Positions 6,456 to 52,361 of a stretch of 64,000 nucleotides of DNA are shown in pieces. The notes beneath the pieces are model-generated. The model was given only the letters and a program-made list of their open reading frames with translations, was not told the DNA's origin and searched no databases. Each line of letters opens with the position of its first letter. Within the stretch, counting starts at the first letter, position 1. Source of the DNA: Candidatus Woesearchaeota archaeon (GTDB lineage Archaea; Nanobdellota; Nanobdellia; Woesearchaeales; DSVV01); contig JACPTB010000002.1 in NCBI GenBank assembly GCA_016192995.1, positions 98,283 through 162,282 of the forward strand, written 5' to 3'. The position numbers and the translations under genes were made by a program.

Positions 6456-6632
6456 GAGAACTTTGCAAAATTATGGTTACTGCCAATTTCGTGAGCATTT
6501 TCGAAATATTTATCGGGCAATTTTCGAGGTTCCTTGCCGACAGGCAAGTCTTATAATCCCGATCTTTAGTCGAGATTATATTTATAGAGAGAAAATTGCT
6601 TTGTTTAACAAAGATCTCAATGCGAACTGGCT
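6456..6632 (+). mobile_element. MITE-like repeat, family 1, copy A (degenerate right end, nested insertion in core loop)
   Basis: left end GAGAACTTTGCAAAATTATGGTTACTGCC shared with copies at 43079 and 48447; internal hairpin core 6517-6599 interrupted by ~53-nt insert. Confidence 0.7.
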
Positions 6633-10138: not shown

Positions 10139-11269
10139 ATGAAATCGCAACAAACTATTGTGCTTCTTGATGCGCAGTTGAAAAATGCATTTAAAGCAGT
10201 AAAACAGGATATTTCTCGTTTAGATAAAAAGGTAGACTCAACAAGATATGATGAAGTGAAAACTGAAATAAATAAAGTTCATACGATCGTAGATAATGAA
10301 TTAAAAAAATTAAAAGAACAATTAAAAAACTTGAAAAAAGAATTAAAGGAAAATTTCAAAGAGATCACTAACAAAGTAAAAAATGAGAGCGCTACAAAAA
10401 ATGATATTGCATCATTAGAAAATGAATTAGAAGAATATGCCATTAAAGTGAAGAAGAATTTTATTAAAGCTGCAGATAAATTCAAAGAAGTGGAGAGCAA
10501 TACAATCGAACTCGATGAAGTAAAGGCTGCATTTTTAACCAAAGAAACAGTGGAAAAACAATTAGAAAGCCTTAAAGAAAGCTTAATGCAGGATAGAGAA
10601 AAAGAAATAAATAATGTAAAAAAACAGGTTGATAAAGCCACCAGTGATTTTCACGATAAAGTGAATGGTATGCAGAAAGAACTTGATGACGTGCATGATA
10701 AAGTAACAACACTTTCAAAAAGAGCAGAAGTTCTTGTTCATAAAGAAGAGTTAGCAAAGGCAAGTGAAAACTTCATTGAAATTGACGAATTTAATAAAAT
10801 TCTTGATAATATAGAAACATTGAAGAAAGAATTCTATGAAAAACCTGAAGAAACAACAACAAAAGAAAAAGATGAATTGTTCAAACGACAAATGGAAAAA
10901 ACAGCTAATGATATTCATGATAAAGTTAATAATCTAAGAAAAGAACTTGATAGTGTGCATGAAAAAGTAACAAAAGTTCAAGAAAAGATGGAAAAAACAA
11001 TAGATCAAGAAGAGCTGTTAAAAATAAGTAGGGGCTTTGTAAATATTGAAGAACATAACAAAGTGCATGAAAAGATTGATGCAGTGAAAGAAATGCTGAA
11101 TACAGTTCAATTCTCAGATACTGAAGTAAAAAAACTCCGTTCAAATGTTGATAAAATAATTCTTGCACTTGTTCCAAAGAAAGAGCATGATAAAAGCATG
11201 GAGAATATTCATAAAAAACTTCAAAGCTTAAAAGAAGATATTGACGAAATAGATAAAAAAGTGAAATAA
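10139..11269 (+). CDS. coiled-coil protein with two ~100-aa internal repeats
   Basis: 376 aa K/E-rich heptad-like sequence; repeated block HDKVNxxxKELDxVHxKVT...FxEIDEFNKI / FVNIEEHNKVHEKI. Confidence 0.5.
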   Translation: MKSQQTIVLLDAQLKNAFKAVKQDISRLDKKVDSTRYDEVKTEINKVHTIVDNELKKLKEQLKNLKKELKENFKEITNKVKNESATKNDIASLENELEEYAIKVKKNFIKAADKFKEVESNTIELDEVKAAFLTKETVEKQLESLKESLMQDREKEINNVKKQVDKATSDFHDKVNGMQKELDDVHDKVTTLSKRAEVLVHKEELAKASENFIEIDEFNKILDNIETLKKEFYEKPEETTTKEKDELFKRQMEKTANDIHDKVNNLRKELDSVHEKVTKVQEKMEKTIDQEELLKISRGFVNIEEHNKVHEKIDAVKEMLNTVQFSDTEVKKLRSNVDKIILALVPKKEHDKSMENIHKKLQSLKEDIDEIDKKVK

Positions 11270-11820: not shown

Positions 11821-11864
11821 AAATTTACTTAAGGAATAATACTTTATAAAGATTTCCACAAAAA

Positions 11865-12021
11865 GTATGTAATAAGTCTTGTATGGTTTTAGCGCCAGTT
11901 CAGCTTTTGAAGTGTGTTTCAATTGGATTTTTCTCTCTGGAACTCCGAAAAATCCCCAAAATGTATTTAAGAAGAGCTTCACAAAAGTAGGCGCTAAAAC
12001 CCCAGACGACTTATTACATAC
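11865..12021 (-). mobile_element. MITE-like element, family 2, copy B (157 bp) with TIR and 7-bp TSD
   Basis: TIR GTATGTAATAAGTC / GACTTATTACATAC; flanked by CACAAAA on both sides (11857-11863 and 12022-12028); core hairpin 11925-11955. Confidence 0.75.
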
Positions 12022-12058
12022 CACAAAATATATTAACATTATTAAAAAAAGTAGGAAT

Positions 12059-21532: not shown

Positions 21533-22744
21533 ATGCTGATTATAGAAAGACCCCAAGAGCTTAAAAAGATAACACAAATAAAGAAATGGCTGTTAATTTA
21601 TGGGAGGAGAAAAACAGGGAAAACATATCTCATCTCTACATTTCTCAAGCCAGATGAATATTTTTTTATAAAAAGCAATAAAAATATTTTGACTAAAAAC
21701 AATGAATCCATTTCTTATGAAACATTTATTGAGATAGTAAAACGCAGCCTTGCAAATAACAAAATAGTTGCCGTTGATGAATTTCACCGGTTAGGTACTG
21801 ATTTTTTTGATTTTTTGCATTATACTGAAAAAAAAGGAAAATTAATTCTAATTTCATCTACGCTTTATCTTTCGAAAAAGCTTCTTTCTGAAAAGTCAGC
21901 ATTGCTTGGATTATTCGCAGAAGTAGTTATTGGCCTGATTAGTTTGCAGGACATATTAAAAGCATTGGGAAAATATAATCTTCCAAAAAAAGAGCTGTTT
22001 GAAATTGCAATACTTCTCCGCGAACCGATTGCAATAGATTATTTTGATGAGAGAAAAAAAGCGAGGGAAACAGCAGCAATAATCATCGAGAGTTCTTTAA
22101 GAACAATTCCTGCCTTAATGGGAGAGATTTTTATTGAAGAACAGCGGGAAATTTCAGCAGTTTATGAAGGCATTCTTAGGGGAATAGCAATAGGAAAGAT
22201 AAATTCAGGGGAATTATCAAGCTATTTATTTTCAAAAAGATTATTGATGAAAGATGATCCTAGTATAATACAGCAATATCTTAATAATTTGATGCAATTT
22301 GGGATTATAAAAAGAATAGAATTATTTACCAAGAAGAGATTCGTATATAAACTGACGTCACCGCTGGCAAGAATTTATTATTACAGTGATGAAAAATACA
22401 ATATTTCTGAGAGGAAAATGAATGAAAAGGAACTGCTCGCCATTATAGATGAATTGATGCCAAGAATAGTGGAAGATACCGTCAGGGAAGAGCTTGCTGA
22501 AAAAGAAGGGTTAAGGGAAACAATAGTGGAATCCGCAGATTTCGAAATTGATGGCTGTTTGCTAAAATTTAAAACACCGGAAATAGCATTGGAAGTTAAG
22601 TGGAAAGATAGTACTAAATTAAATATTAATGAGATTAATAATAAATTAAAAGAAATAGACGCAAAAAAAAGAGTGTTATTTGTTTCTGATAAGAAAACAG
22701 TGAAAAACAATGGATTAATAATCATGGATCCAGCAGATTTATAG
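21533..22744 (+). CDS. archaeal ATPase (Arch_ATPase, DUF234 family)
   Basis: Walker A GRRKTGKT, Walker B VAVDEF, C-terminal DUF234-like region. Confidence 0.65.
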   Translation: MLIIERPQELKKITQIKKWLLIYGRRKTGKTYLISTFLKPDEYFFIKSNKNILTKNNESISYETFIEIVKRSLANNKIVAVDEFHRLGTDFFDFLHYTEKKGKLILISSTLYLSKKLLSEKSALLGLFAEVVIGLISLQDILKALGKYNLPKKELFEIAILLREPIAIDYFDERKKARETAAIIIESSLRTIPALMGEIFIEEQREISAVYEGILRGIAIGKINSGELSSYLFSKRLLMKDDPSIIQQYLNNLMQFGIIKRIELFTKKRFVYKLTSPLARIYYYSDEKYNISERKMNEKELLAIIDELMPRIVEDTVREELAEKEGLRETIVESADFEIDGCLLKFKTPEIALEVKWKDSTKLNINEINNKLKEIDAKKRVLFVSDKKTVKNNGLIIMDPADL

Positions 22745-22930: not shown

Positions 22931-23476
22931 ATGACTAAAGAAACTATTGACCTATTAATTGTAACCACCGGCGGATCTATTGATGCATATATGAAATGGC
23001 CATCAGCAGAAAGACCTGGCTGGTGTATAGAGATTCTGAATAGAGAAACACAAATTCCAGAAATAGTCAAGCATTTAGGAATAGAAGGAAAAGTAGAGTA
23101 TGTTCCCATTTGCATGAAAAATTCTGACGACATAACTGATGCAGACAGAGATGCAATGTACAAAGCAATAGCAAAAAGTCCTCAAGAGTCTGTTGTTATA
23201 ACACATGGATTAAACACCCTAAAACAAACACAGATTTACTTAGAACGAAAACTTAGAGCTGATAATCCACTTACGTTGCCAAAAACAATTGTTCTTGTTG
23301 GCTCAAAAACACCTGATGTTGCTGGTCATCATGGAGAAGGAATAATTCAAGTAGGCTATGCAATTGCATCTTCTCTTACAGCTCGCCATGGTGTATATCG
23401 GGTTGACAATGGAAGATTACTTGATGTCCAAGGCAGAAAATACGATCATGATCAATTCAGAAATGCAACAGGCTAA
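22931..23476 (+). CDS. asparaginase-family protein, N-terminal domain only
   Basis: VTTGGSID (Thr nucleophile motif), VITHGLNTL, TIVLVGSKTPDV; lacks C-terminal domain. Confidence 0.5.
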   Translation: MTKETIDLLIVTTGGSIDAYMKWPSAERPGWCIEILNRETQIPEIVKHLGIEGKVEYVPICMKNSDDITDADRDAMYKAIAKSPQESVVITHGLNTLKQTQIYLERKLRADNPLTLPKTIVLVGSKTPDVAGHHGEGIIQVGYAIASSLTARHGVYRVDNGRLLDVQGRKYDHDQFRNATG

Positions 23477-23734: not shown

Positions 23735-24892
23735 ATGTCAAAGAAACCAGATAAAGCTTATCTTATTGAATGTGATGAAATTTACCGAAGATTTATTGAA
23801 GAAGAAATTCCAGAGCCAAAAATTACTTTAGACTGGACAGGAAAACCAAAAAAGCCGCGAGTATTATTGTTATATACTGGCGGAACATTGGGAATGAAGA
23901 AAAAAGTAAATCAAAAAACTCAAAAAGAAGAATTAGTTCCTGATTTAAGCCTTGAACAATTATGCGCTGCAGCAGATTTTGTTGCAGGAATCAAAAATAG
24001 ATATAATCTTTTAGGATACCATGTTTCACATGTTGATAGCACAGAGATTAATGTAAAAGTATGGAAGACATTAGCAGGTTTAGTTCATAAGCATTATGAA
24101 GAGTTTGATGGTGTAGTAGTCTTGCATGGAACCGATACATTACAATATACCTCAGCAGCTACAGCATTTTCATTAAGAAATTTAGCCATACCTGTGGTGC
24201 ATACTGCTGCGCAAATGATTTTGCAAGCTGATGGTTCAGATGTTCTGATGAATTTAACAGGATCATTAGCTGTTGCAACATCGAAAATAGCTGAATCTTG
24301 CGCTCTTATAACGGGAGAAATATACAAAGGAACAAGACTTGAAAAAGTAGATGATTCCAGAATATTAACTTCATTTGGCTCTCCCATTTATGGAAGCATT
24401 GGCCATTTAGGCAGCCATGGTGTTGTGTTAGATCAACGAGCAGTAGTCAGAGGAACTTATATTCCAAGTGATTTAATTTATGCACCTGAATTTGAAACTA
24501 GTGTTCTTGAAGTGGTGATTACTCCAGGTTTAAGTCCAAGAGTTGTTGACGCTGCAATTGATGAATCAGAATGCAAAGCATTAGTCATGAGATCTTTTGG
24601 ACCAGGAAATATGCCACGATGGTTTATCCCGCTTATTAGAGCAAAAGCAAGTGAAGGATATCCAGTATATGTTTCATCGCAATGCGCAGGAAGCGGAATT
24701 TCTGCAGGTGGAAGCGACTATGCAGTAGGACAAGCTGTTTTAGAAGCAGGCGGAGTTCCGATTGGAGATATGTCTCCGACAGCTACAACGGTAAAGCTGA
24801 TGAAAGTAATGGGATACACAAAGGACAATGCAGCCATTAAAAGAGAAATGGTTGGAAATATATATGCGGATGAAATTACCCATTACAAATAA
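23735..24892 (+). CDS. L-asparaginase-family protein (type I / GatD-like), full length
   Basis: LLLYTGGTLGM, VVLHGTDTL, complete C-terminal domain; 385 aa with ~40-aa N-terminal extension. Confidence 0.65.
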   Translation: MSKKPDKAYLIECDEIYRRFIEEEIPEPKITLDWTGKPKKPRVLLLYTGGTLGMKKKVNQKTQKEELVPDLSLEQLCAAADFVAGIKNRYNLLGYHVSHVDSTEINVKVWKTLAGLVHKHYEEFDGVVVLHGTDTLQYTSAATAFSLRNLAIPVVHTAAQMILQADGSDVLMNLTGSLAVATSKIAESCALITGEIYKGTRLEKVDDSRILTSFGSPIYGSIGHLGSHGVVLDQRAVVRGTYIPSDLIYAPEFETSVLEVVITPGLSPRVVDAAIDESECKALVMRSFGPGNMPRWFIPLIRAKASEGYPVYVSSQCAGSGISAGGSDYAVGQAVLEAGGVPIGDMSPTATTVKLMKVMGYTKDNAAIKREMVGNIYADEITHYK

Positions 24893-24941: not shown

Positions 24942-25969
24942 ATGAAGAAAATGGAAACTACAACAAAAAAACCAAAAATCTGCATTCTTTTCTGTGGCGG
25001 CACAATTGTGATGGCAAAAGATCCAAAAACAGGTTCTTTAGACATGTCAGGCGGCATAAATGAAATTCTCAACTTAGAGCCAAAATTAAAAGAAATTGTG
25101 GAGATGAATGTTGAATTCATCGACAACATAGATAGCACCAATACCAAAGAACACCATTGGGATACTATGGTGAAAAAGATTACAGAAAAATACAATGATT
25201 ATGATGGATTTGTTATCACCCACGGCACTAATACCATGGGTTACACTCAAGCGCTTTATCATTTGCTTTGCAAGGGATAGGAAAACCTGTTGTTTTGACA
25301 GGCGCGCAAATTCCAGCCAATCAATTAGAGAGTGATGCACGAAGAAACTTTGTCAACGCTGTAAAATTGGCAACGATGAACATTGCGCAAGTGATGGTTG
25401 TTTTCGGGAGCAAAGTTATTCTCGGCACCAGAGCAAAAAAAGTTTCAGAATCAGAACTGGAAGCATTCAAAACATTCAACGCTCCGGACTTAGGCGAAAT
25501 CAGATTAAGCATTGAACTAAAACAAGAACACAAAAAACGTCATAATCATCCATTTACACCAAAGCCTGGCTTCAACGCAAATATTATTGTCTTAACTTTA
25601 GAACCAGGCATAAGAACAGAAGATGTCATGAAAATAGTAGAATCAGATATCAAAGGTTTAGTAATCCGAGCATATGGCAGTGGTGATCTACCTTACTCGT
25701 TGCTGCCAGCATTAGAGCGCGCTCATAAAAAAAAGATTCCAATTGTTGTCACAACACAATGTCCTATTGGCGTGACGAGAATTGGATTAAATGACGTTGG
25801 ATTAAAAGCATTGCAAACTGGCATTACGCAGGCATTTGATATGTCAATGGAATCAATGACGACAAAATTAAAATGGCTTCTTGATAAAAATACACCGTAT
25901 GAACGGATTAAGGAAATAATGGAAACAAACTTGGCAGGAGAATTAGTTCCGCCGATAAAAGATAGTTAG
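24942..25969 (+). pseudogene. asparaginase-family gene split by a frameshift near 25247-25252
   Basis: ORF 24942-25280 has ILFCGGTIVM and VITHGTNTMGYTQAL; +2 frame continues SALSFALQGIGKPVVLTGAQIP (TTG-initiated ORF 25268-25969); one-nt indel restores a canonical asparaginase. Confidence 0.55.
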
Positions 25970-27782: not shown

Positions 27783-28994
27783 TTAAGATATAATTACATT
27801 ATTAATATCTTCAATATCTTTAAACTGTTTCACAAGAATCTTTTTAGAAAATGAGGACTTTTCAAAGAATTCTAACTCTTTTTCTTCAATCTTCTTTTTA
27901 TATTTTACTTCTATGGCAATTGTTTTCTTTTTAATTAGTATGATAAAATCAATCTCTTTATTGTTTTCAAAATAATAGTATAGAGGATACTGTTTAATCT
28001 TAAGATATACTAAATTTTCAACTAAGCTTCCTTTATCTTTAAATCCAACAAAAGCATTTCGTATACCTACATCTGCAATGTACAATTTTTTGGGAGAATG
28101 AATTTTTTCATTAAGAGATTTTGCATACCTATCAATTGAATAAAACAAAAAAGTATCTTTAAAATATTCAAGAAATCTCCGTATGGTATCAACACTTACT
28201 GAAAGCACTCTCGCAAGCTTAGACAGGGTTATTGTTTTGCCAGCTCGTTCACAAAGTAATTGAAACATTTTCTCAACAATATCTTTTTCTTTAATATTAT
28301 GATAGGCAATAATATCTTTATAGAGTATTTGTTCGATAGTATTTTTTAAACAGTTTACATCTTGAGTAAGCACATATTCTGGCATACCTCCTATTTTGAG
28401 ATATTCTTCAAAGTAGCTTTCAAGTAAATACTGTTCTGATGGTAGTATATTGATATTTTTAAATTGAAGAAATTCAGTAAAATCTAACGGAAGAACTTCA
28501 ATGATTAATGACCTGCCAACAAGATAATTATTTTTTGATTTAAGCAATGATGCTGATGATGAAGATGCAAAAAATTTAATATTTTCAAGATCATAAAAGT
28601 TTTTTAATTCCTGCTCAAAAGATGATGATTGTGTTACTTCATCTAAAAAAACATAAATGGGTGTTTCCAAACCAATACTATGCATTTTTCTATATTCTTC
28701 AACCAATTGGTGTATTGTTTTATCTTTAAAAGAAATAAAATCCATAGTCAGATAGAAAATTCTCTTAGGTTCTGTTGTCGAAAGCAAATAGTGGATAAGC
28801 TGCTTTAATAAGGTTGTTTTTCCTACTCTTCGCAGACCTGAGAGAAATACTATTTGTTTTGTTTGAAGCTCTTGTTTCATCAAACTAAGGTATTTTTCCC
28901 TTGTAAGACCTGCAGAAAACTCCTTTTTCTCCCACCAAGGATTCATTAATGAAAATATCTGTTGTAAATCATCCATAAGCATATTAAACCACAT
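27783..28994 (-). CDS. AAA ATPase, COG1373/DUF4143 family
   Basis: Walker A GLRRVGKTTLL, Walker B VFLDEV, C-terminal DUF4143-like. Confidence 0.65.
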   Translation of the reverse strand: MWFNMLMDDLQQIFSLMNPWWEKKEFSAGLTREKYLSLMKQELQTKQIVFLSGLRRVGKTTLLKQLIHYLLSTTEPKRIFYLTMDFISFKDKTIHQLVEEYRKMHSIGLETPIYVFLDEVTQSSSFEQELKNFYDLENIKFFASSSSASLLKSKNNYLVGRSLIIEVLPLDFTEFLQFKNINILPSEQYLLESYFEEYLKIGGMPEYVLTQDVNCLKNTIEQILYKDIIAYHNIKEKDIVEKMFQLLCERAGKTITLSKLARVLSVSVDTIRRFLEYFKDTFLFYSIDRYAKSLNEKIHSPKKLYIADVGIRNAFVGFKDKGSLVENLVYLKIKQYPLYYYFENNKEIDFIILIKKKTIAIEVKYKKKIEEKELEFFEKSSFSKKILVKQFKDIEDINNVIIS

Positions 28995-31862: not shown

Positions 31863-33587
31863 ATGGAAACAGATTTTTATCGAGAGATAATTGAAGCAGT
31901 AAAAAATAAAAAATTAGAACCAGAAAACTTAAACAAAATAAAGCGTGAACTTTCAAAAAAATATAAATTAGGATATATTCCAACAAATATTGAAATTTTA
32001 TTAAGAGCTAAAAAAACTGAGCGCGAGAAATTAAAAGCATTGCAATTAAAACCAACACGTTCTATTTCTGGGGTTGCAAACGTAGCAATTATGTCTGCGC
32101 CATATGCCTGCCCTCCGCAAGCGCAATGCACCTTCTGCCCTGGAGGTCCAAACTCGCAGTTTGGGACAGTTCCTAAATCATATACAGGCCATGAGCCAAG
32201 CACGATGAGAGGAATCAGAAATGACTATGATCCTTATTTACAAGTGTTTAATCGTATTCAGCAATATGTTTTGCTGGGGCATAGCTTTGATAAAATTGAA
32301 TTAATTATTATGGGTGGCACATTTACCAGTTACAGCAAAGTGTATCAGGAAAAGTTTATCAAATACGCTTTAAAAGCAATGAATGATTTTTCTGATCTTT
32401 TTTTTATTGAAAAAAGATTCAATATCGAAAAATTCAAGGAATTTTTCGAGCTGCCTGGAGATATTGAAGACCATGAGCGTGCAGCAAAAATTAAAGAAAA
32501 ATTGCTTAAAATAAAAGGAGACAGCGCGTTAGATAAAGAACAGCAGCGTAATGAAAAAGCAAATATAAAATGTGTTGGATTAACTTTGGAATCACGATCC
32601 GATTATTTGAAAAAAGATTATGCAAATTACATTCTTGAGCTTGGCTGCACAAGAGTTGAAATAGGAATACAGTCAGTGTATGAAAAACCTTTGATCATGG
32701 TAAAAAGGGGTAATACAACGCAAGATAATATAGAAGCAATCCGAGATCTGAAAGATCTCGGATTTAAAATAAACCTTCATTATATGTTAGGATTGCCTGG
32801 TATTAAAGACAAAAAGGAAGATCTTGAAGGTATGAAACAGTTATTTTCTAATCCTGATTACAAACCTGATATGTTAAAGATATATCCATGTATGGTGTTC
32901 AAAGGAACACCATTGTATGAAGAGTATGTTAAAGGAAACTATAAACCATACAGTACTGAAGAAGCTGCTAAAATGATTGCAGCATTCAAGCCTTTTGTCG
33001 GCCGTTATTGCAGAATAATGAGAGTTAACCGTGACATTCCTTCTAAAATGAACGAAGCAGGAATTGATAAAACCAATTTACGTCAGTATGTAGACCAGTT
33101 TAATCATCACTGCAAATGTATAAGATGCAGAGAAGTTGGCCACGTTTATAAAAAAACAGGAAAAAAACCTGAAAAGATAGCATGTATTATTGAAGAATAT
33201 GAAGCAAGCAAAGGAAAAGAATTCTTTATTTCATATGAAGATAAAGAACAAGATATTCTGCTCGGATTTATCAGAATGCGATTCCCGAGCAGAATATTAA
33301 GAAAGGAGATTACTAAAACAAGTGCTTTAATCAGAGAGCTTCATGTGTATGGATCTGCAGTAATGATTGGAAAAAAAGAATCGTTATCCATAACAAGTAT
33401 TGCACAGCATAAAGGTTTAGGAAAAAAACTATTGAAAAATGCGGAAACTATTGCAAAGAAACAGGGAAAAGATAAAATAGTAATAATCGCAGCATTAGGA
33501 ACAAGAGAATACTATCGAAAATTAGGTTATAGAAAAGAAGGACCATATATGATAAAGAAACTTAGAGTTTCTTTATCAGTCGAGTAG
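31863..33587 (+). CDS. elp3: Elp3-family radical SAM / GNAT acetyltransferase
   Basis: CPPQAQCTFCPGGPNSQFGTVPKSYTGHEPSTMRGIRNDYDPY Elp3 signature; C-terminal GNAT QHKGLGKKLL; stop codon TAG spans junction with MITE. Confidence 0.85.
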   Translation: METDFYREIIEAVKNKKLEPENLNKIKRELSKKYKLGYIPTNIEILLRAKKTEREKLKALQLKPTRSISGVANVAIMSAPYACPPQAQCTFCPGGPNSQFGTVPKSYTGHEPSTMRGIRNDYDPYLQVFNRIQQYVLLGHSFDKIELIIMGGTFTSYSKVYQEKFIKYALKAMNDFSDLFFIEKRFNIEKFKEFFELPGDIEDHERAAKIKEKLLKIKGDSALDKEQQRNEKANIKCVGLTLESRSDYLKKDYANYILELGCTRVEIGIQSVYEKPLIMVKRGNTTQDNIEAIRDLKDLGFKINLHYMLGLPGIKDKKEDLEGMKQLFSNPDYKPDMLKIYPCMVFKGTPLYEEYVKGNYKPYSTEEAAKMIAAFKPFVGRYCRIMRVNRDIPSKMNEAGIDKTNLRQYVDQFNHHCKCIRCREVGHVYKKTGKKPEKIACIIEEYEASKGKEFFISYEDKEQDILLGFIRMRFPSRILRKEITKTSALIRELHVYGSAVMIGKKESLSITSIAQHKGLGKKLLKNAETIAKKQGKDKIVIIAALGTREYYRKLGYRKEGPYMIKKLRVSLSVE

Positions 33588-33843
33588 TACGTAATAAGTC
33601 TGGGGTTTTAGCACCTACTTTTGTGAAGCTGTTCTTATATTTGCTGTGAGGATTTTTCGGGGTTCCTTGCCGATAGGCAAGTCTTATAATCCCAGACGCA
33701 AGCCAAATTATGACTCCTTGATTTATAAGAAAAATCCAATTGAAACACACTTCAAAAGCTGAACTGGCGCTACCTGAATCCGAAGGATCTCAGGGATTAA
33801 AAATAGTAATTTTTAATAAAACCATAAAAGACTTATTACGTAC
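33587..33843 (+). mobile_element. MITE-like element, family 2, copy C (257 bp) with TIR and 8-bp TSD
   Basis: TIR GTACGTAATAAGTCT / AGACTTATTACGTAC; direct repeat GTCGAGTA at 33579-33586 and 33844-33851; core hairpin 33650-33737 carrying a nested insert. Confidence 0.85.
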
Positions 33844-33903
33844 GTCGAGTATAAACATTTATATACTAGTAGCTACATGAAATGATTAAGAGGTGGTACT
33901 AGT

Positions 33904-43482: not shown

Positions 43483-46400
43483 ATGAATGAACAAAAAATC
43501 CTGCGAATTAAAAAAAGAACTGGTGAATATGTTGGATTTGATCTGAAGAAAATTTCTAATGCTATTTTCAAAGCTGCCCAGGCAGTGGGAGGTTCTGATT
43601 ATAAAATCTCAGAACGATTAGCAGAACAAGTTTTTGACATGCTCAATGAACAGGACTTGAAAGAAGACATACCTTCAGTGGAAGATGTTCAGGATTGCGT
43701 TGAAAAAGTGCTTATTGAAACAGGACATGCAAAAACAGCAAAAGCTTTTATCTTATATAGACAAAAACGTGCAGAAGCACGATTAAAAGCTGATGCATTA
43801 GTTGGTATAAAAGGTTTGGAAGAAAAGCAAGATCCTTTTGGCGTGAATGAAGAATTATTCGGCAGTTCATTAACCAGCCATAATATCAAAGTTACGGTAA
43901 CTGAACCAATTGCAAAAATGTTTACGTATAACAGCAAATTATCCAAGTTAGTGGATAAAAATAAAATTAATGCCTATAGAAAATTATTTTATATGCTCAA
44001 GGATATGCAGAAGGAGGGTTCGTTGCCATTGCATCCTGCAAATGATTATTTAGCAGGCAATGAACTTGCCATGGATATTTACAGGAAAAAATATTATGTC
44101 CACGATCTTGATGATAACCTTATTGAGCAGCGTCCGGAAGATGTATTTGTAAGGCTTGGTTCTTATCTTGCATCTATTGAAGAAGATGAAGACAATCAAG
44201 TGTATTTTGCCCAGGAATTCTATAAAATGCTTTATGAAGGATATTTTGTGCCTGGCGGCAGAGTAATTGCTGGAGCTGGAGATTTATATAGATTAAAAAC
44301 ATTAGCAAATTGCTTTGTTTCAGTGATGGAAGATGATAACATTGAATCTATTTACAAAGCTGCTTTCGAATGTGCGCGAACATATTCATATGGGGGAGGA
44401 ATTGGCGTTGATATTTCTACCCTGCGTCCAAGAGAAGCTGTGGTACATAATGCAGCAAATTTCTCAACAGGCAGCGTTTCATTCATGGAAATCTACTCAT
44501 TAACAACAGGGTTAATTGGTCAAGCTGGAAGGCGAGGCGCATTAATGCTAACTATTGATGTTAAGCATCCTGATATTCTTAATTTTATTAGAGTCAAACA
44601 AGAATCAAATTGGGTGACAAAACAGATTAGGGAGCAATGCAGCTGGTCAGGAAAATTCAACGCTGAACAGCTGGATGCGATTGAAAAACAAGTTCGTGAA
44701 AACACCCAGGTAAGGTTTGCAAATATTAGCATGAAAGTTACTGATGAATTCATGACTGCTGTTGAAGAGCAAAATAAGTATGGAAAGGATAAAATAGTAG
44801 TGTATAAAAAATTTAGCAAATTGATTATTAATAGAGTTAACCAAAGCAAAGAAATGAATTTTGCCTTTGGCATTCCTTCAAAATATTTAGAGAATTATGA
44901 GTTATATAAAGTATTTGAAACCATTGAAGAAGCAAATGAGTTTATACATAAAGAAACAAACAAACAGATCTCCAAGCAATTGCTTGAAAATGTGCAGAAC
45001 AGGGACATTTATGGAGATGTAATTGTACCAGTAGAATCACAAAATTATGATTTAGCAGTGAGATATTCAGGTGATTATTTATTATATTTTAGTTCTGAAC
45101 CTGCAGGAGAAACAAGAAGATTAGTAAAAGCGCGGGATATTTGGGATGAATTTGTTAAAGGTAATTATCAAACAGCTGAGCCAGGATTAATATTCTGGTC
45201 AAGAATGACAAAGTATTCACCTTCTAATTATATAGGGAGACCAATTGCAAGTACAAACCCCTGTATTGCAGGAAACTCACAGGTATCAACAAGTAAAGGA
45301 TTGCAGCAAATAAAAGAGCTTGTTGGTAAAACGCCTCAGATTCTAACTGACAACCGAGTGCCTATACAAGTGAGAGATACTAACGGAAGAATTATGTTGC
45401 TCGAACAAAAACAACAAGGAGTAAGTTTTGACACTATAGAAGCAGCATGGTCATCGGGAATTAAAGAAACCTATAAACTTACCACAAAAAAGGGCTATGA
45501 AATCACTGCAACAGGTGATCATAAGATTATGACTACTGAAGGTTTTAAGCAGTTACATGAACTTACACCTAAAGATAAAATTTTAATCCAAAAAGGAGAA
45601 GGCATGGGAAACAATGATAAGCTATTATCTATTGAAAGAGATGAAATTATCAAAGGAGATAATAATCATATCTATCATTACAAATTCCCCACAACATGGT
45701 CAAAAGAACTTGGGCAATTGCTTGGTTGGACAGTAGGAGATGGATTTATCACTCCTGAACCAGATAATAGACTTGGGTTAGTATTTAGTAAAGAAGATGA
45801 AGACGTGATGAGCCAGTTAAAGAAGTTTATTGAGGAGATATATGGAAAAGAAACAAAACCAAGCATCAGAGAGTCTACAACACAATTAAGATACCATAGT
45901 AAATATTTTTGTGATTTTCTACGTAGATTAGGCATCAAAAGTGTAAAAGCTGAACTTAAGCAAGTTCCGCATAGGATATTTACTGCGCCAAAAGAAGCAG
46001 TAGTAGGATTTTTACAGGGATTGTTTACTGCTGATGGAACTATGGCAGTTGGCGAAAAAGGGAATTATATTCGATTAACTTCTAAGTCAGAAAAGCTTCT
46101 GAAAGAAATACAAATAATACTTATTAACTTAGGGATGTTATCTACAATCTATGAACGCCATCGAACTCCTCAGAAAAAATTTAATTACTATAATGCAGCT
46201 GGAGAATATAAAGAGTACATAACAGATGGGAAATTATGGGAGTTAAGTATAACTAAAGGAAGCTTGCAGCGATTTGTTGAAGAAATTGGGTTTATAGGAA
46301 GTAAACACCAAGAAAGAATAAAAGTATTTCTCACAAAGAAACAATACCAAGAACACTTTTACGATACTATAAAAAGCATAGAACCACAGGGAAAACAAGA

Positions 46401-47730
46401 AGTATTTGATCTAACAGAACCACGAACACATTCTTTTATAGCTAATGGCATTGTTATTTCAAATTGTGGTGAAGTGCCATTAGAAGACGGCGGCGCTTGT
46501 AATCTTGGATCAATTAATCTTTCTCGGTTAGTAATTGATGGTTTTACTGATACTGCAAGAATTAACTGGAACGAACTTGAACGAGTAACAAAGTTGGCTA
46601 CACGATTTTTAGATAATGTTGTTGGCTGGAATATTTCATTGAATGCTCTTGATAAACAACGGAGTGCTGCTGCAGAAACACGAAGACTTGGTTTGGGTGT
46701 TATGGGAATTGCAGATATGTTATTTCAGCTTGGTTTAGAATATGATAGTGAAGAGGGTATAGCAGTTATTGAGAAAGTTTGTCAGGTTATTGCTAATGCA
46801 GGTTATCGTGAATCCGCAGAATTAGCTGAAGAAAAGGGAGCTTCACCAGTATTTGATTATAACAAATACAGCCGCAACCCATTTTTTAAAGAAGCTCTTG
46901 ATGACAATACTAAAGAATTAGTCAAGAAAAAAGGATTGCGGAATATTGCAATACTTTCTATTGCGCCAACAGGAACTATTTCAAATATTGTATTAGGGTA
47001 TAAAGGAGAGCAAAAGAATTATATTGGTGTTAGCGGCGGTGTTGAACCGGTATTTGCAATATTTTACACGAGAAGAAGTGAAAATTTCGGCAACAAACGA
47101 TTTAACATCTTCCATTCAACAGTAAGCGCTTATTTGGATAAAAAAGGGCTCCAGGAAAAAGCGCAGTATGCAACAAGTGAAGACGAACTCCGCCAACTGT
47201 TGCCTGGATGCTTTTTTAGAACTGCCCATTATATTGAGCCTGAAAAAAGAGTTTTAATTCAGGGAGACTGCCAAAAATATACTGACCATAGTATTTCATC
47301 AACCGTCAATTTACCTGAAAGCATAAGCCCTGAAACCATTTCAGAGATTTACATTAAAGCATGGAAATTTGGCTTAAAAGGGATCACTATTTACCGTGAT
47401 GGAAGCAGGTACCCTATTTTAAGCATTCAGCAACAGCAAAGCGCATTTCAAGATTTCAAGAAAAAACAATTCAAATATGTCTCTGATGGAAAAGAAATCA
47501 TAGTAAGAGGCGACCAAGTTATAAAGCTGCCTCAGGGAAAGCTTTCAACGCCGTATCATGCGCAGAGAGAAAACATTCAAGGGATAGTGTTAACCGAGAT
47601 CACTGATCAACCAGCGATAACTGAAGAAGACAGTTCTAATAAAAATGAAGATCATAAAGATGATAACAAAGCTAAAGTCTGCACTATTAGTTTTGAAGAT
47701 GGAAAGCTTGTTAAATCATGCTCAGAGTAA
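43483..47730 (+). CDS. nrdJ: class II (adenosylcobalamin-dependent) ribonucleotide reductase with ATP-cone and intein
   Basis: N-terminal ATP-cone ILRIKKRTGEYVGFDLKKISNAIFKA; catalytic TNP-C...GEVPLEDGGACNLGSINL; C-terminal GLKGITIYRDGSR and terminal Cys pair. Confidence 0.85.
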   Translation: MNEQKILRIKKRTGEYVGFDLKKISNAIFKAAQAVGGSDYKISERLAEQVFDMLNEQDLKEDIPSVEDVQDCVEKVLIETGHAKTAKAFILYRQKRAEARLKADALVGIKGLEEKQDPFGVNEELFGSSLTSHNIKVTVTEPIAKMFTYNSKLSKLVDKNKINAYRKLFYMLKDMQKEGSLPLHPANDYLAGNELAMDIYRKKYYVHDLDDNLIEQRPEDVFVRLGSYLASIEEDEDNQVYFAQEFYKMLYEGYFVPGGRVIAGAGDLYRLKTLANCFVSVMEDDNIESIYKAAFECARTYSYGGGIGVDISTLRPREAVVHNAANFSTGSVSFMEIYSLTTGLIGQAGRRGALMLTIDVKHPDILNFIRVKQESNWVTKQIREQCSWSGKFNAEQLDAIEKQVRENTQVRFANISMKVTDEFMTAVEEQNKYGKDKIVVYKKFSKLIINRVNQSKEMNFAFGIPSKYLENYELYKVFETIEEANEFIHKETNKQISKQLLENVQNRDIYGDVIVPVESQNYDLAVRYSGDYLLYFSSEPAGETRRLVKARDIWDEFVKGNYQTAEPGLIFWSRMTKYSPSNYIGRPIASTNPCIAGNSQVSTSKGLQQIKELVGKTPQILTDNRVPIQVRDTNGRIMLLEQKQQGVSFDTIEAAWSSGIKETYKLTTKKGYEITATGDHKIMTTEGFKQLHELTPKDKILIQKGEGMGNNDKLLSIERDEIIKGDNNHIYHYKFPTTWSKELGQLLGWTVGDGFITPEPDNRLGLVFSKEDEDVMSQLKKFIEEIYGKETKPSIRESTTQLRYHSKYFCDFLRRLGIKSVKAELKQVPHRIFTAPKEAVVGFLQGLFTADGTMAVGEKGNYIRLTSKSEKLLKEIQIILINLGMLSTIYERHRTPQKKFNYYNAAGEYKEYITDGKLWELSITKGSLQRFVEEIGFIGSKHQERIKVFLTKKQYQEHFYDTIKSIEPQGKQEVFDLTEPRTHSFIANGIVISNCGEVPLEDGGACNLGSINLSRLVIDGFTDTARINWNELERVTKLATRFLDNVVGWNISLNALDKQRSAAAETRRLGLGVMGIADMLFQLGLEYDSEEGIAVIEKVCQVIANAGYRESAELAEEKGASPVFDYNKYSRNPFFKEALDDNTKELVKKKGLRNIAILSIAPTGTISNIVLGYKGEQKNYIGVSGGVEPVFAIFYTRRSENFGNKRFNIFHSTVSAYLDKKGLQEKAQYATSEDELRQLLPGCFFRTAHYIEPEKRVLIQGDCQKYTDHSISSTVNLPESISPETISEIYIKAWKFGLKGITIYRDGSRYPILSIQQQQSAFQDFKKKQFKYVSDGKEIIVRGDQVIKLPQGKLSTPYHAQRENIQGIVLTEITDQPAITEEDSSNKNEDHKDDNKAKVCTISFEDGKLVKSCSE
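45262..46464 (+). other. intein (401 aa) with LAGLIDADG homing-endonuclease domain, inserted before catalytic Cys of nrdJ
   Basis: N-terminal splice CIAGNS, block B TGDHKIMT, LAGLIDADG motifs LLGWTVGDGF and VVGFLQGLFTADG, C-terminal HSFIANGIVISN followed by extein Cys. Confidence 0.8.
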
Positions 47731-50330: not shown

Positions 50331-52361
50331 ATGCCCCTTGAAAAAGTCATTAAACGGAATGGTGAAACTGTAGTTTTTGATCCAAAAAAGATCACAGATG
50401 CATTGTACAAAGCAGCGCAAGCTATTGGAGGAACTGATGAAGAGCTCTCTAAAGCATTAACAAAAAAGATTGTAGCAAAGATAGAAGAATTATTTCCTGA
50501 CAAAATCCCCCATGTTGAAGATGTTCAGGATGTTGTTGAGCGTGTTTTAATAGAAGACAATCATGTAAAAACAGCAAAAGCATATATTTTGTATAGGGAA
50601 CGCCAAAAAAATATCCGGGAGGTAAAACAGTCATTAGTAGGAGGATATGTTGATAAGCGCTTTACTATTAATGCATTAAAAATTCTCAAAGAACGATTAT
50701 TAATGAAAAAAGAAGATGGCGCTGTTGAAACGCCTGAAGATATGTTTAGAAGAGTAGCAAAAGAAATAGCAAAAGCAGATAAACAATATGATAATGAGCC
50801 AAACCTGAAAGAAACTGAAGATAAGTTTTTCGAGTGTTTAAACAAGCTTGATTTTTTGCCAAACTCGCCCTGCTTAATGAACGCAGGAACCAAAAATCAG
50901 CAGTTAATTTCATGCTATGTCCTACCAATTGAAGACAGCACTGAAAGTATTTATACAACATTAAAAAATGCTGCAATGGTGCATCGTACAGGTTCAGGAA
51001 CAGGCTTTTCTTTTTCCAATTTAAGACCAAAAGAAGATACGATCGATGATTCTCGTGGATTTTCAGCAGGGCCAATTCCATTTATGCATGTCTATGATAA
51101 ATCAACAGAAATAATCAAGAAAACTGGTTTAAGGCGTGGCGCAAACATGGCAGTGTTGCGTGTTGATCACCCCAATATCCTCGATTTTATTACCGCAAAA
51201 GAAAATCCCCATCACTTGAGAAACTTCAACATCTCTGTTGGCATTACAAAAGAATTTATGGATGCATTAGACAACAGAAAACGATATCCATTAATTAATC
51301 CGCGAACAAAGCAGGAAGTTCGTTTATTGCCTGCTAAAGAGGTCTTTGATTTAATTGCAACAATGTCGTGGAAAAATGGTGAGCCAGGAGTTATTTTCCT
51401 TGATACTATTAATGAGAAGAACCCTGTTCCTGAACTTGGTGAAATAAAAACAACCTCTGCCTGCGGAGAAGTGCCTTTGCTTGAATATGAAGCATGCCCG
51501 CTTGGCTCAATAAACTTATCTAATATGGTGCAAGGAGGCAGGGTCAATTTAGCTGCATTGCGGGACACTGCGTGGATTGCAGTGCATTTTCTTGATAATG
51601 TTATTGATGTAAATAAATACACCTTAAAAGACAGTGAAAAAATAACTAATGATAATAGAAAAATAGGAGTTGGAGTTATGGGTTTTGCAGATATGCTGTA
51701 TCAGTTAGGGGTTCCTTATAATAGTGAAGAAGCAATAAAAGTAGCAGAAAGAATCATGAAATTTATTCGTGATGAAGCAAGATTAGCTTCAGAAGCTCTA
51801 GCAAAAAAAAGAGGAGTATTTGCAAATTATGAAAAAAGCATATATGCAAAAAAAGGAATAAAGCAAAGAAATGCGACAACAACTGCTATTGCGCCAACAG
51901 GAACAATCTCATTAATTGCTGATTGTTCTTCAGGCATTGAACCGAATTTCGCTTTAAGTTACATGAAAAAAATCACCGGTGGGGATGAGTTATTATATGT
52001 TAATAAGCATTTAAAAAGCGAATTATTGAAAAGAGAGATTTATTCTGAAGATTTAATGAAAGAAATTGCATCAAAAGGATCACTCCAATCATTTTTGGAT
52101 TTAGCATCAGAAATCAGAAAAGTGTTTGTTATTAGCCATGAAATACCTGCAGAATATCATGTATTAATCCAAGCAGCATTTCAAAAATATTGCGATAATG
52201 CAGTTTCAAAGAGCGTTAATTTAGAGTACACTTCAAGCAAAGAAGATGTCGTTAAAACCTTCAAGCTTGCTTACAAACTAGGGTGTAAAGGAATAACCAT
52301 TTATCGAGATAGAAGCAGAGAAGATCAGATTTTAACACTATTAGGGGGAGAAGCAATATGA
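50331..52361 (+). CDS. nrdJ: class II ribonucleotide reductase (short paralog, no intein)
   Basis: ATP-cone VIKRNGETVVFDPKKITDALYKA; TSACGEVPLLEYEACPLGSINL; GCKGITIYRDRSR. Confidence 0.8.
   Translation: MPLEKVIKRNGETVVFDPKKITDALYKAAQAIGGTDEELSKALTKKIVAKIEELFPDKIPHVEDVQDVVERVLIEDNHVKTAKAYILYRERQKNIREVKQSLVGGYVDKRFTINALKILKERLLMKKEDGAVETPEDMFRRVAKEIAKADKQYDNEPNLKETEDKFFECLNKLDFLPNSPCLMNAGTKNQQLISCYVLPIEDSTESIYTTLKNAAMVHRTGSGTGFSFSNLRPKEDTIDDSRGFSAGPIPFMHVYDKSTEIIKKTGLRRGANMAVLRVDHPNILDFITAKENPHHLRNFNISVGITKEFMDALDNRKRYPLINPRTKQEVRLLPAKEVFDLIATMSWKNGEPGVIFLDTINEKNPVPELGEIKTTSACGEVPLLEYEACPLGSINLSNMVQGGRVNLAALRDTAWIAVHFLDNVIDVNKYTLKDSEKITNDNRKIGVGVMGFADMLYQLGVPYNSEEAIKVAERIMKFIRDEARLASEALAKKRGVFANYEKSIYAKKGIKQRNATTTAIAPTGTISLIADCSSGIEPNFALSYMKKITGGDELLYVNKHLKSELLKREIYSEDLMKEIASKGSLQSFLDLASEIRKVFVISHEIPAEYHVLIQAAFQKYCDNAVSKSVNLEYTSSKEDVVKTFKLAYKLGCKGITIYRDRSREDQILTLLGGEAI

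Follow-up and report, generated by a model that had tools for sequence, protein, structure and literature searches.

A miniature transposon beside elp3 in a Woesearchaeota archaeon and its probable place in a DPANN superfamily with a conserved interior fold

Introduction

[quoted passage not shown] In bacteria, the enterobacterial repetitive intergenic consensus (ERIC, also called intergenic repeat unit, IRU) and the Correia repeat enclosed element (CREE) are small intergenic inverted-repeat elements that are transcribed within the neighbouring mRNAs, and compensatory changes preserving an RNA hairpin have been reported for ERIC. The present work deals with a 257-nucleotide (nt) element located at the end of the elp3 gene of a Candidatus Woesearchaeota archaeon (assembly GCA_016192995.1, contig JACPTB010000002.1, positions 98,283 to 162,282 of the forward strand; this whole stretch of 64,000 nt is hereafter referred to as the window), with its relatives in the window and elsewhere, and with the interior fold that they have in common.

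Members of the IS6/IS26 family are recognised by 8-bp repeats, GG tips, a G at position 7 and a cTGTt...caaa pattern, with the consensus GGTTCTGTTGCAAA, the archaeal members having longer and looser ends (PMC7986276, PMC6807381). As for abundance, a MITE census gave ~105 MITEs per Mb in a Woesearchaea genome (PMC11602168); the density of the family described here is similar in the window (six copies in 64 kb, i.e., ~94 per Mb), of which it occupies ~1.5-2%, even though DPANN genomes are among the smallest cellular ones and purging would be expected.

The element at the end of elp3

The preliminary description of the window had read, at 33579-33851, a MITE-like element with a perfect TIR and an 8-bp TSD, and the direct reading of the ends and the flanks bears this out. 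The element (copy A; 33587-33843, plus strand, as are all its parts given below) begins with the inverted repeat GTACGTAATAAGTCT (33587-33601) and finishes with the exact reverse complement, AGACTTATTACGTAC (33829-33843), so that all 15 positions match, and it is flanked by the duplication GTCGAGTA both on the left (33579-33586) and on the right (33844-33851). It has no coding capacity, the sole overlapping open reading frame (ORF) being a spurious antisense one of 62 amino acids. The assignment as a MITE is further supported by the recurrence of inverted ends and a fixed 8-bp duplication at many independent sites in many genomes (see below), and the 257-nt insert downstream of elp3 is a real miniature transposon.

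The elp3 gene itself (31863-33587, plus strand; protein MBI3032293.1 at NCBI) encodes a radical SAM plus GNAT protein whose domains are all intact, only the non-conserved tail entering the element. Since the ORF ends at 33587, its TAG stop consists of the final two bases of the left duplication (TA) and the first G of the element, as had been proposed before. Rejoining the flanks does lengthen Elp3, although by 11 codons after ...LSVE (YKHLYTSSYMK) and not by the ~15 codons estimated initially. Related Elp3 proteins terminate 7 codons earlier, at ...GPYMVKKL, where the window has AGA in place of their stop. The insertion took place, therefore, in an ancestrally intergenic spacer, outside the conserved coding sequence and directly upstream of the next gene's box similar to a B recognition element and TATA box (BRE/TATA-like; TAAACATTTATATA), which directly follows the right duplication.

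Copies in the window

Repeat finding, together with a covariance model built from 17 copies, identified exactly six copies in the window (C1, B, A, C4, C5 and C6), whose outer ends differ and whose interior is common to all. Copy A, the long form of subfamily 2, matches the model with 60 bits; the short form is copy B (11865-12021, minus strand, 157 nt), with the ends GTATGTAATAAGTC at 11865-11878 and their complement at 12008-12021 (14 of 14 positions). The earlier claim that this reverse-oriented copy bears the same TIR stands except for a single C-to-T difference, mirrored at the opposite end, while the 7-bp flank CACAAAA then assigned to it is better read as an 8-mer matching at seven of eight positions (CACAAAAA at 11857-11864 and CACAAAAT at 12022-12029). 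The end motif of these two copies occurs four times in the window when up to two mismatches are allowed (0.7 expected; none of 100 shuffles reaches four), and their identity is 90.9% over 154 shared positions, the greater length of copy A being due to three hairpin modules that interrupt the P4 loop and the 3' arm of P2 (helices are described below).

Subfamily 1 comprises C1 (6456-6640), C4 (43079-43215) and C5 (48447-48607), all on the plus strand and all starting with GAGAACTTTGCAAAAT. C5 is intact, with GAGAACTTTGCAAAAT as a 16-nt inverted repeat and no recognisable duplication, whereas the 3' end of C1 is degenerate and C4 lacks the right arm. C6 (57605-57770, plus strand) represents a third subfamily, which has the inverted repeat CTCAGGTGAAAAT, begins (TAGA)CTCAGGTGAAAAT and carries the P5 hairpin CC-GA-GGC-TAT-GCC-GA. 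The P4 loops of C1 and A hold the same module, starting with TTGCCGAYAGGCAAGTCTTATAATCCC (window 6539-6580 and 33667-33727); as the outer repeats of the two copies are unrelated, this implies either an exchange of modules between subfamilies or an ancestral long form.

An independent Logan assembly (L027) recovers the left junction of copy A, and independent short-read Logan contigs from the same population end ~30 nt inside A, C1 and C6 (at window positions 33616 in L027, 6481 in L138/L139 and 57741 in L140), as would be expected of true genomic repeats. The artefact of a single assembly, which the preliminary description had named as an alternative, is thus ruled out. In more general terms, chance similarity or misassembly has in its favour the risk that accompanies any metagenome assembly, and it is refuted by the junction recovered independently, by the 81 matches of the covariance model in 75 sources and by duplications far beyond the controls (see below), so that its probability is negligible. 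In practical terms, the copies fragment short-read assemblies of these genomes and can give an adjacent gene a new stop codon or displace the existing one, the examples being elp3 in the window and in the related contig L028.

A conserved interior fold

The common interior of the six window copies consists of a helix P2, a GYGA followed by one strand of the 4-bp helix P3, whose partner comes later together with GARC, and a hairpin, P4, of 9 bp whose loop is GGAGUUCCAGAGA. In copy A, the left and right inverted repeats double as the 5' and 3' arms of the closing helix P1; the 5' arm of P2 is GGTTTTAGCACC (33604-33615), with pairing partners at 33766-33772 and 33817-33823; the 5' half of the G-A motif and of P3, GTGA plus AGCT, lies at 33623-33630, and its partner, AGCT-GAAC, at 33757-33764; and P4 (33650-33737) is formed by GGATTTTTC and GAAAAATCC, with the conserved loop start CGGGGTTCC. 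The module of ~60 nt that is also carried by C1 is inserted in P4 (33667-33728), and two additional hairpins, found in copy A alone, are inserted within the 3' arm of P2 (33773-33816). The TIR of the preliminary description is, hence, also the predicted closing helix of a conserved multi-helix fold, which the four other window copies also have, with quite different ends.

Compared with shuffled sequence, the folding of every copy is much better (z = -4.9 to -6.8). Of the cells in the model alignment, which comprises 69 distinct copies, 95.9% are in standard pairs, and 20 of the 26 pairs have been altered on both sides; none of 500 shuffles reaches the observed values, and when the partners are slid by 1-3 columns the pairing falls to 24-48% across two alignments. 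Between P2 and P3 the arms are never complementary, and both of them read GA (68/69 and 62/65), which is the signature of putative tandem sheared G-A pairs on one strand, given that the opposite strand would have U-C/U-C there. The same strand is indicated by G-U plus U-G cells being more numerous than A-C plus C-A cells (37 vs 11, in a count that ignores the relatedness of the copies).

Most subfamilies also have a hairpin, P5, between P2 and P1, with the arrangement CC-GA-stem-loop-stem-GA-G in 32 of 45 distinct tails (vs 5.5% of shuffles), comprising 12 different stems and GAA, GAAA or GUAA loops; subfamily 2, i.e., copies A and B, is devoid of it. Its placement (P2, CC(C), GA, stem/loop, GA, P1) appears to resemble a kink-turn (k-turn) elaborated into a three-way junction. 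Individual copies have extra hairpins at P4, after P4 or in P5, and three divergent copies (L032, L010b and L026b) keep P2, the G-A motif and P3 with different P4 hairpins.

Distribution and mobility of the superfamily

The preliminary description had proposed to look for further copies, for elp3 alleles lacking the insert and for an autonomous IS with the same TIR. Regarding the first, 72 further loci contain the P4 motif: 26 stretches of species-representative genomes and 46 contigs of metagenomes, most of them from groundwater; the 2.9 million viral contigs scanned do not contain it. The records of the 26 genome loci are labelled Woesearchaeota/Nanoarchaeota, or belong to small metagenome-assembled genomes with the label "Methanosarcinales", and the superfamily is apparently restricted to DPANN archaea of the Woesearchaeota/Nanoarchaeota type. 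The scaffold is broader than the P4 motif used for these scans, since a divergent copy with a different P4 hairpin and the ends AGGCTCCATCCTAAAT lies between marC and elp3 in L032 (2293-2455; also in L033 and L034), where Elp3 is 77% identical to that of the window.

The 8-mers that flank the copies agree at seven or eight positions in 15 of 52 unique copies, nine of them perfectly, vs none of 260 offset controls. The perfect duplications are those of copy A, L008, L013, L014, L018, L020, L021, L023 and L077, and those with seven of eight matches belong to copy B, L002, L003, L012, L024 and L062; the target 8-mers are AT-rich and have no consensus. Near-identical copies at different sites of one metagenome (L062, L075 and L052) show recent activity elsewhere in the superfamily.

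With respect to the upstream gene, 19 copies are co-directional and 13 are not (13 to 12 outside the window), and no orientation bias relative to strand composition (skew) was found. This random orientation argues against a role tied to the transcript of the upstream gene or to the replication strand, and both possibilities were discarded. Nearly every copy lies within ~10-25 nt of an outward-facing BRE/TATA-like box of the AAACATTTATATA type (e.g., window 33852-33865 and 11840-11856, and L008, L013, L021 and L023); a strict version of the motif is present in 14 of the right flanks and 6 of the left ones (51 of each), vs a background of 1.3%. Promoter targeting is not claimed here, as the adjacency is equally explained by selection against other insertions in compact genomes: it may reflect an insertion preference or merely tolerated space.

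These data also bear on whether the elements could have moved as single-stranded DNA, in the manner of IS200/IS605 or of palindrome-associated transposable elements (PATE), or through an RNA intermediate like that of short interspersed nuclear elements, with the fold as the recognition structure. The strand specificity of the fold and the stable hairpins of the GCGAAGC type would suit such routes. Nevertheless, these pathways do not give inverted terminal repeats together with a fixed 8-bp duplication, both of which are present here, and neither an orientation bias with strand composition, nor poly-A, nor duplications of variable length, nor TnpA/TnpB or reverse transcriptase genes nearby were observed, which makes this option very improbable.

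The elp3 site in related genomes

The closest Elp3 relatives were followed back to their contigs for comparison of the site. In L031 (Elp3 83% identical to that of the window), the gene order and the spacer are the same and a single target copy is present without any element (...ACAAAGTA|TAAACATTTATATACTAG), in contrast with the occupied site of the window (GTCGAGTA[element]GTCGAGTA|TAAACATTTATATACTAG). An empty elp3 site, the second of the points to be looked for, does therefore exist. In L029 (82-83%), precisely this position, after ...CTAAAAGTA, is taken by a short subfamily-2 copy, inside which the contig stops. L028 (86%) has no element, but ~20 nt matching the right end (TAAAAGAATTATTACGTA) remain beside GTGGGAGTA|TAAACATTT, with the elp3 stop within this remnant. 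Given the Elp3 tree, (window,(L028,(L029,L031))), either the site had an ancestral occupant that was subsequently lost, or it received more than one insertion.

The preliminary description had inferred recent or ongoing mobility for copies A and B. This is not established, given that A and B differ by 9% and that L029 has a copy, and L028 a right-end remnant, at the elp3 site. The same observations, along with the truncation of two of the three subfamily-1 copies, could be taken to mean that the window copies are old immobile fossils, that the elp3 insertion predates the split from the related species and that nothing is moving now. However, the identity between copy A and the copy in L029 is 91.9%, vs only 57% at the third codon positions of elp3, and a neutral fossil of that age should have diverged far more; this favours insertion on more than one occasion, the alternative being purifying selection on the element. 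Furthermore, the ends and the duplication of copy A are perfect, the site is cleanly empty in L031, the sister of L029, and the TIR variant of L028 agrees with the window copy and not with that of L029. All of these points fit either recurrent insertions into a favoured site or selection acting on the element, and the fossil scenario is, in consequence, rather doubtful.

As a side observation, the elp3 stop has moved in three of these genomes (window 33560-33587, L028 3003-3030 and L029 4195-4237): the window reads through AGA to the junction TAG, L029 stops 11 codons further, and L028 uses a TAA inside the right-end remnant.

The source of the transposase

The ends of the sister subfamilies include GGCTCTGTAGAAAA, GGCTCTGTCC(T/C)AA, GGCTTTGTCCGAAAAG, G(G)GGTTGTTGC(A/G)AAA and GGCGGCATTGAAAAG, as well as GGTTGTTGCAAAA. 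Several of these subfamilies have IS6/IS26-like ends (GGCTCTGT...AAAA), with the GG tips, the G at position 7 and the cTGTt...caaa pattern, features that copies A and B do not display. The combination of IS6-type sister ends and an 8-bp duplication makes an archaeal IS6-like DDE transposase the most likely candidate driver of the superfamily.

Several searches were directed at the mover. No transposase was recognised by Pfam among 40 ORFs of the window, no recurrent ORF families were found beside the copies, and inverted-repeat pairs 0.5-3.5 kb apart with a duplication gave nothing convincing in ~633 kb of related DNA. A phmmer search of all ORFs of the loci with IS26 Tnp26 (an approximate query sequence) returned no match, and scans of viral contigs with two end motifs produced chance-level numbers of matches and one 1988-bp candidate that has no transposase.

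Proposed explanation

Copy A can thus be regarded, with good confidence, as a non-autonomous DNA transposon (MITE) of a DPANN superfamily with a conserved interior fold and a presumably IS6-like driver. A transposase supplied in trans would recognise the inverted ends, the target would be cut with an 8-bp stagger and joined to the element, and the repair of the stagger would yield the GTCGAGTA duplication. The element landed in the short stretch that separates elp3 from the next gene's promoter, so that only the dispensable tail of Elp3 was changed. The interior, in turn, keeps its strand-specific fold (P2, the tandem G-A motif with P3, and P4 with a conserved 13-nt loop), to which most subfamilies add the P5 hairpin with another tandem G-A closing it, and the outer ends have been replaced several times around this fold.

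There are, on the other hand, several points that weigh against this explanation. An autonomous partner with matching ends, the third point proposed in the preliminary description, was found neither among the window ORFs, nor in the ~633 kb of related DNA, nor in the viral contigs. The ends of the copy A/B subfamily, GTAYGTAATAAGTC, are unlike the IS6 consensus, which is why copy A is not filed as an IS6 derivative. IS6-type elements move via cointegrates, and this makes a simple MITE insertion less straightforward. Moreover, because of the random orientation of the copies, a role at the transcript level would need an internal promoter, and none was identified in them. Finally, P1-P3 are long-range inverted repeats, so that a single protein with which both ends co-evolved may account for part of their covariation. 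This last objection does not apply to three features: the hairpins P4 and P5, which are local and one-sided, the GA/GA arms, and the excess of G-U over A-C.

A possible RNA cargo

The preservation of an interior by compensatory change while the ends turn over is the reverse of the usual MITE pattern, which suggests that selection acts on the cargo as well as on the ends. A fold that outlives its ends points to a role as RNA or, less likely, as single-stranded DNA. One may go further and suppose that the small structured RNA gene came first (for example, the RNA of an L7Ae/k-turn-type ribonucleoprotein), its closing helix being what is read as a TIR, and that it spread by hitch-hiking on transposition. 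This is consistent with an asymmetric multi-helix fold maintained despite the exchange of the ends, with tandem G-A motifs that do not vary and GNRA-like or GAA loops, with the predominance of G-U over A-C on one strand only, and with peripheral hairpins inserted at loops, as in expandable RNAs; there is, in addition, the precedent of the MITE-like C/D-box small RNA element of Pyrobaculum calidifontis (PMC6009581). Against it, Rfam gave no matches at the gathering threshold across the whole window, and a lax search with two copies (E up to 10) returned only chance-level matches of the microRNA-hairpin or CRISPR-repeat-like kind. The lack of an orientation bias relative to upstream genes and of a recognised internal promoter counts in the same direction, as do the P3 motif, which has no 3-nt bulge beside the G-A pairs and hence is not a canonical k-turn, and the absence of P5 from subfamily 2. 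An RNA-first origin is, thus, a tentative proposal.

Equally tentative is the more explicit version in which the conserved core would be an undescribed structured-RNA class of Woesearchaeales-type DPANN, possibly a k-junction RNA bound by L7Ae, that propagates as a DNA transposon with the closing helix doubling as the recognition ends for the transposase, selection acting on the RNA and different transposase lineages having captured it repeatedly. If the cargo is RNA, a little-understood group of archaea would be credited with a class of RNA that is both new and abundant.

Known RNA architectures were also considered. A hammerhead core, a bulge-helix-bulge and an H/ACA pocket, assessed by eye, do not fit; neither does a pseudoknot of the P4 loop with the P5/P1 junction, a U-to-G change in the C6 loop being uncompensated. 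As for a C/D box small RNA, CUGA is present in AGCUGAGC, but its 5' partner is UGYGA and not RUGAUGA, and there is no guide layout.

Other features of the window

In keeping with a host of the kind that carries the other copies, the window has 33% GC and encodes archaeal Elp3, TrmB and an intein-bearing ribonucleotide reductase. There are two paralogs of the large subunit of the latter, at 43483-47730 (with a LAGLIDADG intein) and at 50331-52361 (with no intein), with stretches of 72-79% identity (repeats D5 and D10). Three consecutive asparaginase-like ORFs, namely an N-terminal fragment (22931-23476), a full-length copy (23735-24892) and a split copy (24942-25969), suggest a tandem duplication followed by decay. 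Two AAA_14-type ATPase genes are found at 21533-22744 and 27783-28994, the second with DUF4143, and there is another homolog (L138 3030-4082) a short way upstream of the window. Lastly, a coiled-coil-like ORF of no clear family (10139-11269) contains a 264-nt internal tandem repeat with 71% identity (10619-10985).

Comparison with known systems

The novelty of this family resides in the superfamily itself and its host range, in the fixed 8-bp rule together with an empty site, in an elp3 site whose occupancy is either shared or repeated, and in a strand-specific fold that is conserved, has invariant tandem G-A motifs and persists longer than its ends. Elements of the IS200/IS605 or PATE type have neither TIRs nor duplications, but subterminal hairpins and TnpA/TnpB genes nearby; in the present family, the TIR and the 8-bp duplication are there and such genes are not found in the vicinity. 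Unlike the SM1-SM4 elements of Sulfolobus, it has a conserved interior and variable ends, and unlike ERIC/IRU and CREE, which consist of one long imperfect palindrome and have TA duplications, it has an asymmetric branched fold and 8-bp duplications.

The MITEs of the IS6/IS26 family (MITEBth2 and MITEHarch3 in ISfinder) are closer, for they also have an 8-bp duplication, short inverted ends and no ORF, and several sister subfamilies start with GGCTCTGT or GGTTGTTGCAAAA, near the consensus GGTTCTGTTGCAAA. They differ in that the GTAYGTAATAAGTC ends of copies A and B are off that consensus, with no IS6-type transposase found, and in that the interior of the present family is a conserved fold and not leftover IS sequence. 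The P. calidifontis element (Lui et al. 2018, PMC6009581) is likewise archaeal, with inverted repeats around an RNA-like interior of the G-A (k-turn) type and many copies per genome. The present family, in contrast, lacks a C box (RUGAUGA) and a guide architecture, is larger (150-260 nt) and has four or five helices. Whereas the former is confined to one genome, the latter is spread across many species and, if its cargo is RNA, would follow Pyrobaculum as a second example of RNA genes that spread in the form of DNA transposons.

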